Shown piece after piece: positions 20,445 to 22,658 of a stretch of DNA of 64,000 nucleotides. The stretch comes from Myxococcota bacterium (lineage in GTDB: Bacteria > Myxococcota_A > SURF-8), in contig CAXXQS010000002.1 of NCBI GenBank assembly GCA_963674735.2, forward strand, positions 480,001 through 544,000, written 5' to 3'. Position 1 is the stretch's first letter, and each line of letters starts with the position of its first letter. The notes under the pieces were generated by a model. It ran no database searches. It had not been told where the DNA came from and was given only the letters and a program-made list of their open reading frames with translations. Position numbers and translations under genes: made by a program.

Positions 20445-21227
20445 ATGAACGCGTTAACCTACAAACCCTGCCCGCCCCACGACCCGATGTTGCAACGTTT
20501 CCTCGCCCGCGACCCGCTTCGCCATCTCTATCTGTTGGGTGACACACAGCCCCCTTTCAGCCGCTACAGCCGCTTCTGGTTGGCCACCGACGGTGACGAC
20601 GCACGGGCTTGTGTTCTGTGTTTTCAAGACGGAGCGCGAGCGGCGTTGTTGGCGGCAGGCGATCCGCAAGCCACCACGGAGCTGTTCGCCCGCATCGAAA
20701 CGCCCCGGCAAGTGGTCTACCTGCTTGAAGAAACACACCTGGACACGCTCTTGCCAAGCTTCAACGTCGAGCGCGCCATGCCATTCAAACGTATGGGATA
20801 CGACGGGTCATCTCCCCGCCACGCCTCTGGAATTTCCTGGCGGCGTCTCACCCACGCGGATGTGGACCTCGCCGAGAAGCTGGCCCGCGATGTATCCGAG
20901 GTCGCGTTTACGCGGCGACAATTTCTGAACAACCCCTTTGTGGGCGCCTTCGACGAACAAAACCGGGTGATCGCCATGGCGGGGACGCACGTCTGTTCGC
21001 AACGGCTGGGGATTGCCGCCATCGGCAGTGTCGGCGTCCATCCACACCATCGACGGCAAGGGCTCGGACAAACGGTGATGCAGGCCATTGTTTCCGAATT
21101 GCATCCGCGCTTTGCCGTAATCGGCCTCAATGTCGCCGCCGACAACCGGGCGGCGCGCCGCCTGTACCGACGCCTCGGCTTTCACGACGCCTTTTCGTTT
21201 CTGGTCGGAACGGCCACGCAACGCTAG
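20445..21227 (+). CDS. GNAT-family N-acetyltransferase
   Basis: VGVHPHHRRQGLG acetyl-CoA motif A; NRAARRLYRRLGF motif B. Confidence 0.9.
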   Translation: MNALTYKPCPPHDPMLQRFLARDPLRHLYLLGDTQPPFSRYSRFWLATDGDDARACVLCFQDGARAALLAAGDPQATTELFARIETPRQVVYLLEETHLDTLLPSFNVERAMPFKRMGYDGSSPRHASGISWRRLTHADVDLAEKLARDVSEVAFTRRQFLNNPFVGAFDEQNRVIAMAGTHVCSQRLGIAAIGSVGVHPHHRRQGLGQTVMQAIVSELHPRFAVIGLNVAADNRAARRLYRRLGFHDAFSFLVGTATQR

Positions 21228-21315: not shown

Positions 21316-21356
21316 GACAAACATGCGGAGCATGACAGAGCCATGCTCCTGCTCAA
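21316..21356. repeat. REP-like family B, copy 2
   Basis: 39 of 41 nt identical to 20128-20168. Confidence 0.85.
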
Positions 21357-21430: not shown

Positions 21431-21454
21431 GATGGGCAACAAGTTGCCCATCCT
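21431..21454 (-). repeat. GTAG-type REP hairpin interrupted by the IS110 element (insertion target)
   Basis: GATGGGCAAC-AA-GTTGCCCATC is a perfect inverted repeat. Rejoined with the right flank it gives ...CCCATC-CT-AC, i.e. GTAG-GATGGGCAAC on the minus strand. Confidence 0.8.
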
Positions 21455-21468
21455 TGTATTATCCCTTT

Positions 21469-21675
21469 CAAGCGACTGTCATCGTTTGTGATGATAAGAT
21501 GAAACGACCTCCCGTAGCAAGCGGGAGGCCGTGGTGGGCGGCGAGATCGTCCCATCCTGGGGCCTGATGAGCCCGTTTTGTAGCCGGATCCGCCGTCCGT
21601 TTCGTCCGGGAAAACCCGAACAGTCGCAGGGGCCATTGTAATCGAAATGAGCCCGTATTGGCAAGGAAGGGTGCG
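21469..21675 (+). ncRNA. Bridge RNA (target-binding loop ~21536-21598, donor-binding loop ~21614-21672)
   Basis: Guides TCCCATCCT (21550-58) and GTAG (21580-83) match the target. ACAGTCGC (21620-27) and CAAG (21662-65) match the end junction. Each pair flanks an inner GGGC/GCCC hairpin. RNA ends are estimated. Confidence 0.85.
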
Positions 21676-21677
21676 CC

Positions 21678-22613
21678 ATGAAGAAATGGATCGGGATCGA
21701 CGTCAGCAAAGCCGTTTTCGATGTCGCCGTCGACGGCGAAAGCACGTGCGTCCGCTACGCTTACACCAAAGCCGGCATGACACGCTTCGTCCGTTCGTTG
21801 AAGCGGATCGAGGTGGAGGGCGTCGTGATGGAAGCCACCGGCGGCTACGAACGGGAGCTGTGCAAACGTCTTCAGAAAGCGGGTTGGCCGGTGGCGGTGG
21901 TCAATCCCCGGCGCATCCGGGATTATGCCCGCGCCGTCGGCGTGATGGCGAAAACGGATCGACTCGATGCGGGCATCATCGCACGCTACGCAGCCGCCAT
22001 GCGTCCCGCACCGAACGAAACGCTCGGCGAAACCGCCCTCCTGTTAAAAGCCCTGTCTTCACGGAGGCGGCAGCTGGTCGCCATGCGCACGATGGAGAAA
22101 AACCGCACCGAACACGTGGGCGATCGGACGATCGGACAAAGCCTGCACCGCATTCTGGAGGTGATCGAACGGGAAATCGAGCGGCTGGATCGGGCCATCG
22201 CGGCGGCCATTGCATCGGATCGGGAGCGCAGCGACCGGGCCGCGCGGCTCCAAACGATGCCGGGCGTCGGCGCGTGCACGGCGAATCTTCTGGTGACGGA
22301 TCTGCCGGAGCTGGGGATCTACAACCGGCGGCAGATCGCGGCGTTGATCGGCGTGGCGCCCATGAATCGGGACAGCGGAACGTTTCGGGGTAAACGCATG
22401 ACCGGCGGCGGTCGTCATCGCCTGCGCACGGCGCTCTACATGCCGACGCTGGTGGCGATTCAACACAACCCGGTGATTCGCGGACACTACCAGCGGCTGG
22501 TCGGACGCGGCAAACCGAAGATGACGGCGGTGGTGGCCTGCATGCGAAAATTGGTCCTCATTCTCAACACGATGATGCGGAAAAACGAAGCCTGGAACCC
22601 GAATTTCGCTTGA
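21678..22613 (+). CDS. IS110-family transposase / bridge recombinase
   Basis: RuvC-like DEDD residues in GIDVSK, MEATGGYE and KTDRLDA; Tnp20 domain with PGVG, APMNRDSG (catalytic Ser), GRHRLRTALYM and ACMRKL. Confidence 0.97.
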   Translation: MKKWIGIDVSKAVFDVAVDGESTCVRYAYTKAGMTRFVRSLKRIEVEGVVMEATGGYERELCKRLQKAGWPVAVVNPRRIRDYARAVGVMAKTDRLDAGIIARYAAAMRPAPNETLGETALLLKALSSRRRQLVAMRTMEKNRTEHVGDRTIGQSLHRILEVIEREIERLDRAIAAAIASDRERSDRAARLQTMPGVGACTANLLVTDLPELGIYNRRQIAALIGVAPMNRDSGTFRGKRMTGGGRHRLRTALYMPTLVAIQHNPVIRGHYQRLVGRGKPKMTAVVACMRKLVLILNTMMRKNEAWNPNFA

Positions 22614-22658
22614 CACCGATAACAGTCGCTACTTTTCTACCTTCTAGGGGTTTTGAAT

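Follow-up and report, generated by a model that had tools for sequence, protein, structure and literature searches.

An IS110-family insertion sequence with a predicted promoter split between its two ends and rebuilt in the circular form

Promoters that arise when the two ends of an excised insertion sequence meet in a circle have been described for several elements. The circle of IS621 (Escherichia coli) is described as reconstituting a sigma-70 promoter across the point where the right end meets the left (RE-LE), which drives the bridge RNA (PMC11208160). In the model put forward for this element, genomic copies are weakly expressed and excision is rare, the junction promoter then boosting expression (PMC13626964). 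For ISPpu10 of Pseudomonas putida KT2440 a strong hybrid promoter is reported as measured, in which the right end supplies the -35 and the left end the -10; the same account describes the native promoter of the element as weak, and adds that the element targets REP sequences and has an antisense sRNA (PMC12288879). ISPpu9, from the same strain, is likewise an IS110-family, REP-targeting and circle-forming element; it is reported there to have no junction promoter and a good native internal promoter for its transposase gene (PMC12288879). Further reports of circle-junction promoters concern ISEc11 and ISEc21 (PMC11187229), and promoters formed from abutted circle ends (Pjunc), as proposed here, are described for ISEc11 and IS492 (IS1111/IS110) and for IS3, IS21 and IS30 (PMC11187229, PMC12288879). 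The IS3, IS21 and IS30 families have DDE transposases and no bridge RNA, unlike the element described below, and the IS1111 group differs from it in carrying the RNA downstream of the gene. An earlier note on the present DNA had called junction promoters established for IS110/IS621 circles, and published accounts document them for IS621 (PMC11208160, PMC13626964) and ISPpu10 (PMC12288879). A split junction promoter is an expected trait of the family, though some IS110 elements, such as ISPpu9, lack one.

The element described here lies in a 64,000-nt stretch of DNA, the window, from a host genome of 5.26 Mb (56% G+C, 3 contigs). Its gene, ends and target are as follows, a slash marking the edges of the insertion.

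Positions 21455..22630, + strand: IS110-family insertion sequence, 1,176 bp with the right-hand CT counted in; 8 of 8 genomic copies are identical across this span
Positions 21453..21454, + strand: left copy of the CT core; the empty site reads CCCATCCT/AC, the occupied site CCCATCCT/element...GCT/AC
Positions 21431..21452, + strand: target hairpin, a REP-like repeat of the form GATGGGCAAC AA GTTGCCCATC; the same hairpin stands 5' of 8 of 8 copies
Positions 21678..22613, + strand: bridge recombinase gene, 311 aa; matches PF01548 (3e-22) and PF02371 (8e-19)
Positions 22621..22630, + strand: right-end terminus (left donor), AACAGTCG plus the CT core; CAGTCGCT is nearly invariant in relatives

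Both IS110 domains were found in the recombinase, namely DEDD_Tnp_IS110 (PF01548) at 79.5 bits against a cut-off of 29 and Transposase_20 (PF02371) at 68.2 bits against a cut-off of 21.3, and the element thus belongs to the IS110 group of the IS110 family, that of the bridge-RNA recombinases. Among solved structures, the protein matched ISCro4 (E 3e-37) and IS621 (E 1e-34) over residues 4-300. It contains GIDVSK (residues 6-11), MEATGG (51-56), KTDRLDA (92-98) and RDSGTF (231-236), which we take to be the D, E, DxxD and S motifs, respectively. A Shine-Dalgarno sequence, AAGGAAGGG, is found at 21663-21671.

A DNA search returned eight full-length copies of the element in the genome, each at 100% identity, and the only PF01548 matches genome-wide were these same eight. 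To the left of every copy stands one and the same hairpin repeat, whose last bases are ...GTTGCCCATCCT. When the flanks were compared by script, AC followed the element in 8/8 copies and ACT in 7/8, with divergence beyond. Written out, the occupied site is CCCATCCT/TGTATT...GTCGCT/AC, and comparison of the eight copies with 14 empty sites left CT as the only sequence present at both ends, which is the core behaviour of IS110 elements. Insertion is site-specific at this short core, with neither terminal inverted repeats nor a longer target duplication. The boundaries placed by the earlier note were therefore borne out, without any use of the promoter, by eight identical copies and 14 empty hairpins, and the matches of the RNA guides to target and donor (see below) confirm the element ends a third time. 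With the ends so mapped, position 22630 would abut 21455 in a circle that retains one CT, and the 21-nt junction string that had been predicted is indeed window 22620-22630 followed by 21455-21464.

The left target consists of the 3' half of the hairpin plus CT. The hairpin core has 62 strand-wise matches in the genome, which amount to 31 hairpins because the core is palindromic; eight of these run into the element, 14 read CCCATCCTAC and are element-free, and one reads CCCATCCTAT. A second target hairpin was seen about 40-50 nt further left in five of the eight copies, mostly in the opposite loop orientation, which places the targets in clustered, BIME-like repeat arrays; the window copy has a single target hairpin. 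The stretch 21431-21462, comprising the target hairpin with its 9-bp stem and the T-rich start of the element (CTTGTATTAT), was flagged as terminator-like on the + strand and could, judging by its sequence, block read-through into the integrated element. The window also holds a second family of hairpin repeats (GGAGCATG...CATGCTCC), at 21327-21349 and at about 20136, the two lying 1,188 bp apart on either side of an ORF at 20445..21227. This family has seven exact copies of a 22-mer genome-wide.

In the assembled contigs of three runs from one study, the element appears as one collapsed contig of 1,202 nt (21431-22632), whose depth is 79 in X1 and 91 in X2, whereas the right flank has about 10-12. 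Junction 20-, 24- and 30-mers built in silico had 0 occurrences in the genome assembly, and no joint from 22630 to 21455 was present among the assembled contigs of the three runs, a form of data that drops rare forms. The sole contig joint, from 21356 back by 57 to 21300 with 1131 letters between, was rejected as a circle, since it is accounted for by the recurrence of the second hairpin repeat 1,188 bp upstream. The element at 21455-22630 is active-looking and probably active, and we infer that it forms circles.

The 223-nt left end, upstream of the gene, is non-coding and encodes a putative guide RNA with two loops.

Positions 21469..21677, + strand: predicted bridge RNA and leader, with target- and donor-binding loops and a 5' stem-loop at 21508-21528; from alignment and fold
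Positions 21551..21558, + strand: left target guide (LTG), CCCAUCCU; identical, in top-strand sense, to the 8 nt left of the insertion, core included
Positions 21580..21583, + strand: right target guide (RTG), GUAG; complement of CT+AC and invariant in 7 of 7 left ends
Positions 21619..21627, + strand: left donor guide (LDG), AACAGUCGC; same sense as the right-end terminus 22621-22629 (9 nt)
Positions 21662..21665, + strand: right donor guide (RDG), CAAG; complement of CT+TG at the circle junction, overlapping the Shine-Dalgarno sequence

Seven left ends could be aligned at 67% mean identity. Their consensus fold has 32 pairs, seven of them with compensatory changes, mostly in the stem round the target loop, and the window RNA folded singly reaches -87.6 kcal/mol (z -3.25), with 0 of 200 shuffles folding as well. 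Each aligned left end has a 5' hairpin of its own, differing in sequence. The AC matched by the right target guide forms the right flank of all eight copies. Within the left donor guide AACAGTCG is invariant in 7/7 left ends, as is GCAAGG round the right donor guide across the aligned set. By sequence comparison, the left target guide covaries with the left flank across relatives: it is CCCATCCT in the window element and the relative G001 and CCCGACCT in G008 and G009, while the Terriglobia elements carry ACCGCCCC against a flank of ACCGC(A/C/T)CCT and G004 carries TCCGACCT against ATCGACCT, with one mismatch. A search of Rfam matched no family to the bridge RNA; it returned a single hit, to sX15 on the minus strand (E 0.52), which is at chance level and well below the gathering score.

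According to the earlier note, excision and circularisation would assemble a near-consensus promoter from the following parts.

Positions 22610..22615, + strand: -35 half, TTGACA, 6/6 consensus; read from the sequence, overlapping the TGA stop
Positions 21457..21462, + strand: -10 half, TATTAT, 5/6 consensus; read from the sequence, element positions 3-8
Positions 21469..21471, + strand: predicted transcription start, 7-9 nt past the -10, with the first purines at 21470-71; from promoter geometry only

The details of this claim proved exact. The recombinase stop codon that TTGACA was said to overlap is the TGA at 22611-22613, the 15 nt counted from TTGACA to the end of the CT core are 22616-22630 (CT at 22629-22630), and the left end begins, as described, with TG (21455-56) followed by TATTAT (21457-62), with CT at 21453-54 before it. 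Joining 22630 to 21455 does give TTGACA-17 nt-TATTAT, whereas the coordinates put the halves about 1.15 kb apart in the integrated form, as had been stated. The central proposal, that the circle would assemble a near-consensus promoter, accordingly finds support in the sequence and in the comparison with relatives, the junction scoring 11/12 consensus matches at the optimal 17-nt spacing. One end supplies the -35 and the other the -10, at a distance within 16-18 nt and facing the transposase gene, which is the Pjunc layout. The TG before the -10 was considered as an extended -10 (TGn) and rejected, since it directly abuts the TATTAT hexamer and leaves no canonical extended -10; the scan field TG_before_second likewise read "no".

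The host itself uses a consensus of the TTGACA/TATAAT type, as sites of at least 10/12 are enriched upstream of tRNA genes (9 of 47 upstream 120-mers against 23 of 3000 random 120-mers). In the integrated copy, TATTAT faces TGGGCA from the target hairpin at 18 nt, a hybrid that matches the consensus at 9/12 positions against 11/12 in the circle; these are scores, not measured strengths. No + strand site of at least 9/12 was found inside any of the seven left ends, and no terminator-like site on the + strand between 21469 and the start codon.

The right end is short. Its non-coding part, 22614-22630, is 17 nt long and is made up of two bases of the -35, five variable bases and the 10-nt donor terminus; the -35 overlaps the stop codon because the right end is this minimal, extending only 17 nt past the stop. 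The same 17-nt layout was found in 10 of 12 related right ends.

Relatives were collected by protein searches (39-62% identity). For G008, G009 and a Terriglobia MAG the ends were located by comparison of the copies that each genome carries, and for G001 and G004 by conserved termini. With the window element this gives six distinct elements mapped at both ends, the relatives having 45-62% protein identity to the window recombinase. Their circles would read as follows.

Window element: TTGACA, 17 nt, TATTAT
G008: TTGACT, 17 nt, TATTAT
G001: TTGACG, 17 nt, TATTAT
G004: TTGATT, 17 nt, TATTAT
G009: TTGACT, 17 nt, TATGAT
Terriglobia MAG: TTGATT, 17 nt, TATCTT

The split geometry with a spacer of exactly 17 nt thus recurs in 6/6 elements, which are kin rather than independent samples. 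The -10 hexamer is TATTAT in four, TATGAT in one and TATCTT in one, and in all six the ORF stop ends 17 nt before the element end. The -35 match is 4-6/6 in the circle against 1-4/6 for the best integrated candidate, the circle being the better in each of the six. Over 12 distinct right ends, TTGA(C/T)N stands exactly 15 nt from the end in 11, while the first bases of the spacer vary; the exception is a fragmentary copy in G020 that lacks the box. Half of these right ends (6/12) were placed by terminal-motif similarity rather than by copy comparison, and the 12 leave out L031, L033 and L043, which have no recognisable right end. The first listing of right ends required TTGA, a requirement that was dropped in a later look. 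G052 was counted for its right end only, its copies lying a few kb apart in one region with apparently common flanks. In two of five copies in the Terriglobia MAG OZ253554.1 (L029 and L030) the longest frame stops at element position 829-830 instead of 1156-1157, so that their recombinase genes appear broken; their ends and promoter halves are intact.

We read the locus as an IS110-type element whose promoter is split between its ends and rebuilt on circularisation, where it would drive the bridge RNA and the recombinase, and give this reading a probability of roughly 0.82. In the integrated state the halves stand in the wrong order, 1.15 kb from each other, and expression should be low because the -10 meets only the poor TGGGCA. 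Excision as a circle with a single CT would abut the ends and create TTGACA, 17 nt, TATTAT. Transcription would then start at about 21469-21471, yielding a bridge RNA of about 200 nt and reading on into the recombinase gene, as no terminator-like site lies between; the start, the strength of the promoter and a transcript shared by RNA and mRNA are all predictions from sequence. Recombinase and bridge RNA would insert the circle behind another copy of the hairpin (...CCCATCCT/AC...), and reinsertion would split the promoter again and turn expression off.

The most serious alternative is that the TTGA(C/T) box is kept for the stop codon or for recombination, that expression comes mainly from integrated copies, and that the junction promoter is incidental or minor. 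In 10 of the 12 elements counted by their right ends, the ORF terminates at the TGA within the box, which partly confounds the demands of coding with those of a promoter. In G052, however, the ORF stops at a TAA 7 nt earlier and TTGACT is still kept, which indicates that the box is not kept solely as a stop codon, and the base before TGA is T in all six mapped elements although this is a synonymous third position. Retention for other reasons is also at odds with the distance to the -10, exactly 17 nt in every mapped element. As to recombination, the box sits outside the donor-guide match in the right end, 6 nt away from it, and a 22-bp IS621 donor without the -35 box is reported to recombine once the RNA is supplied in trans (PMC11208160). 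Expression from the integrated state would rely on read-through or on the weak hybrid promoter, much as a native promoter drives ISPpu9. The 9/12 score of TGGGCA-18-TATTAT is in its favour and may allow some expression, ISPpu9 is described as circling without a hybrid promoter (PMC12288879), and IS621 genomic loci are said to show weak read-through transcription that suffices for excision (PMC13626964). Conversely, the left end has no internal + strand promoter of at least 9/12, and the hairpin directly upstream is terminator-like, which speaks against read-through. Taken together, we consider this alternative unlikely.

It is very unlikely that the right-end -35 serves instead to pair with a -10 in the flanking host DNA and switch on neighbouring genes. 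Some other insertion sequence families do switch on neighbouring genes via outward-facing half promoters, and a perfect TTGACA facing outward 15 nt from the right end would suit such a role. In the window copy, however, the right flank offers at best 3/6 (TTTTCT) at 16-18 nt from the box, the six other flanks compared (from five distinct relatives) offer 1-4/6, and only AC(T) is conserved on the right side of the target. An outward hybrid promoter was accordingly rejected, the flank -10 candidates being poor.

That the hexamers are aligned by chance has a negligible probability: its only support is that single hexamers are common, sites of at least 11/12 occupy just 49 of 10,529,558 strand positions in the genome at 17 nt (128 at spacings of 16-18), which puts a junction-spanning match at about 1e-4 to 2.4e-4 for about 20 placements, or about 1e-4 per junction, and the recurrence of the geometry in 6/6 mapped elements and 11/12 right ends refutes chance alignment in practice.

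The split promoter therefore remains the preferred reading, and it brings the element close to IS621. Both have a recombinase with DEDD and Transposase_20 domains and a CT core, and in both the left end encodes a bridge RNA that has two loops besides its 5' stem-loop (PMC11208160). As is described for IS621, the 5' sides of the loops (8-9 nt) match the top strand and the 3' sides (4 nt in the window element) its complement. In both, the -35 lies in the right end and the promoter, a predicted one in the window element, spans RE-LE, the IS621 geometry being taken from the published text. The window protein is only distantly related to that of IS621, and its target is a hairpin repeat of its own genome. 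Its right end extends 17 nt past the stop, against an RE-LE of 298 bp in total reported for IS621 (PMC11208160). For ISPpu10, compared here by its published description, the REP target, the hybrid and native promoters and the antisense sRNA all have sequence counterparts in the window, where promoter activity and antisense RNA are predictions. The promoter layout is the opposite of that in ISPpu9, which is described as forming circles that lack a hybrid promoter (PMC12288879).

The window element thus adds a new case, well supported at the level of sequence, to a known arrangement, and the orthologue tables of PMC11208160 might already list it or its relatives. Because a circle-dependent promoter has already been published for IS621 and ISPpu10, the understanding of IS110 biology is unchanged. 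Its value lies in a cleanly delimited element, with eight identical copies and 14 free targets in one genome, in which guides, target, donor and a predicted expression switch can all be read from the sequence, and in a subgroup whose right end is reduced to 17 nt, the -35 and the stop codon overlapping. This makes it a compact candidate orthologue for bridge-recombinase work and an annotation template for its relatives.

Two further features of the left end bear on the predicted transcript. The first is a leader segment at 21470-21479 (AAGCGACTGT, 10 nt), the reverse complement of both the right-end terminus (22622-22630) and the donor guide (21620-21627). Read as DNA, it forms a subterminal inverted repeat; the seekRNA paper describes IS110-type elements as being without one (PMC11187229). 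The minimum-energy fold has the leader paired to the donor guide; it contains no donor-binding loop and keeps the Shine-Dalgarno sequence unpaired, whereas in the consensus bridge-RNA fold the GGG of the Shine-Dalgarno sequence is paired in the basal stem of the donor loop. It is conceivable, if doubtful, that the junction transcript, starting 1-2 bases before the leader complement, switches between serving as mRNA and serving as bridge RNA. Three of the six distinct elements (window, G001 and G004) contain the leader complement, and G008 has a 6-nt version at another position; predicted folds use it in the window element only, and partly in G008.

The second feature, identified by promoter scan, is an antisense site.

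Positions 21635..21664, - strand: antisense promoter-like site, TTGCCA-18-TACAAT, 10/12, directed outward through the left end

It lies antisense to the donor-binding loop. A site at the homologous place is the best on the minus strand in four of the seven left ends (10/12 in the window and in G001, 9/12 in G004, 8/12 in G009); it is not the best in the two Terriglobia left ends, and in G008 other sites score higher. This conservation may, alternatively, stem from constraints acting on the bridge RNA. In position it resembles the promoters described for the antisense sRNAs Asr9 and Asr10 of ISPpu9 and ISPpu10 (PMC12288879), and it may add a further layer of control to the putative transcript switch.
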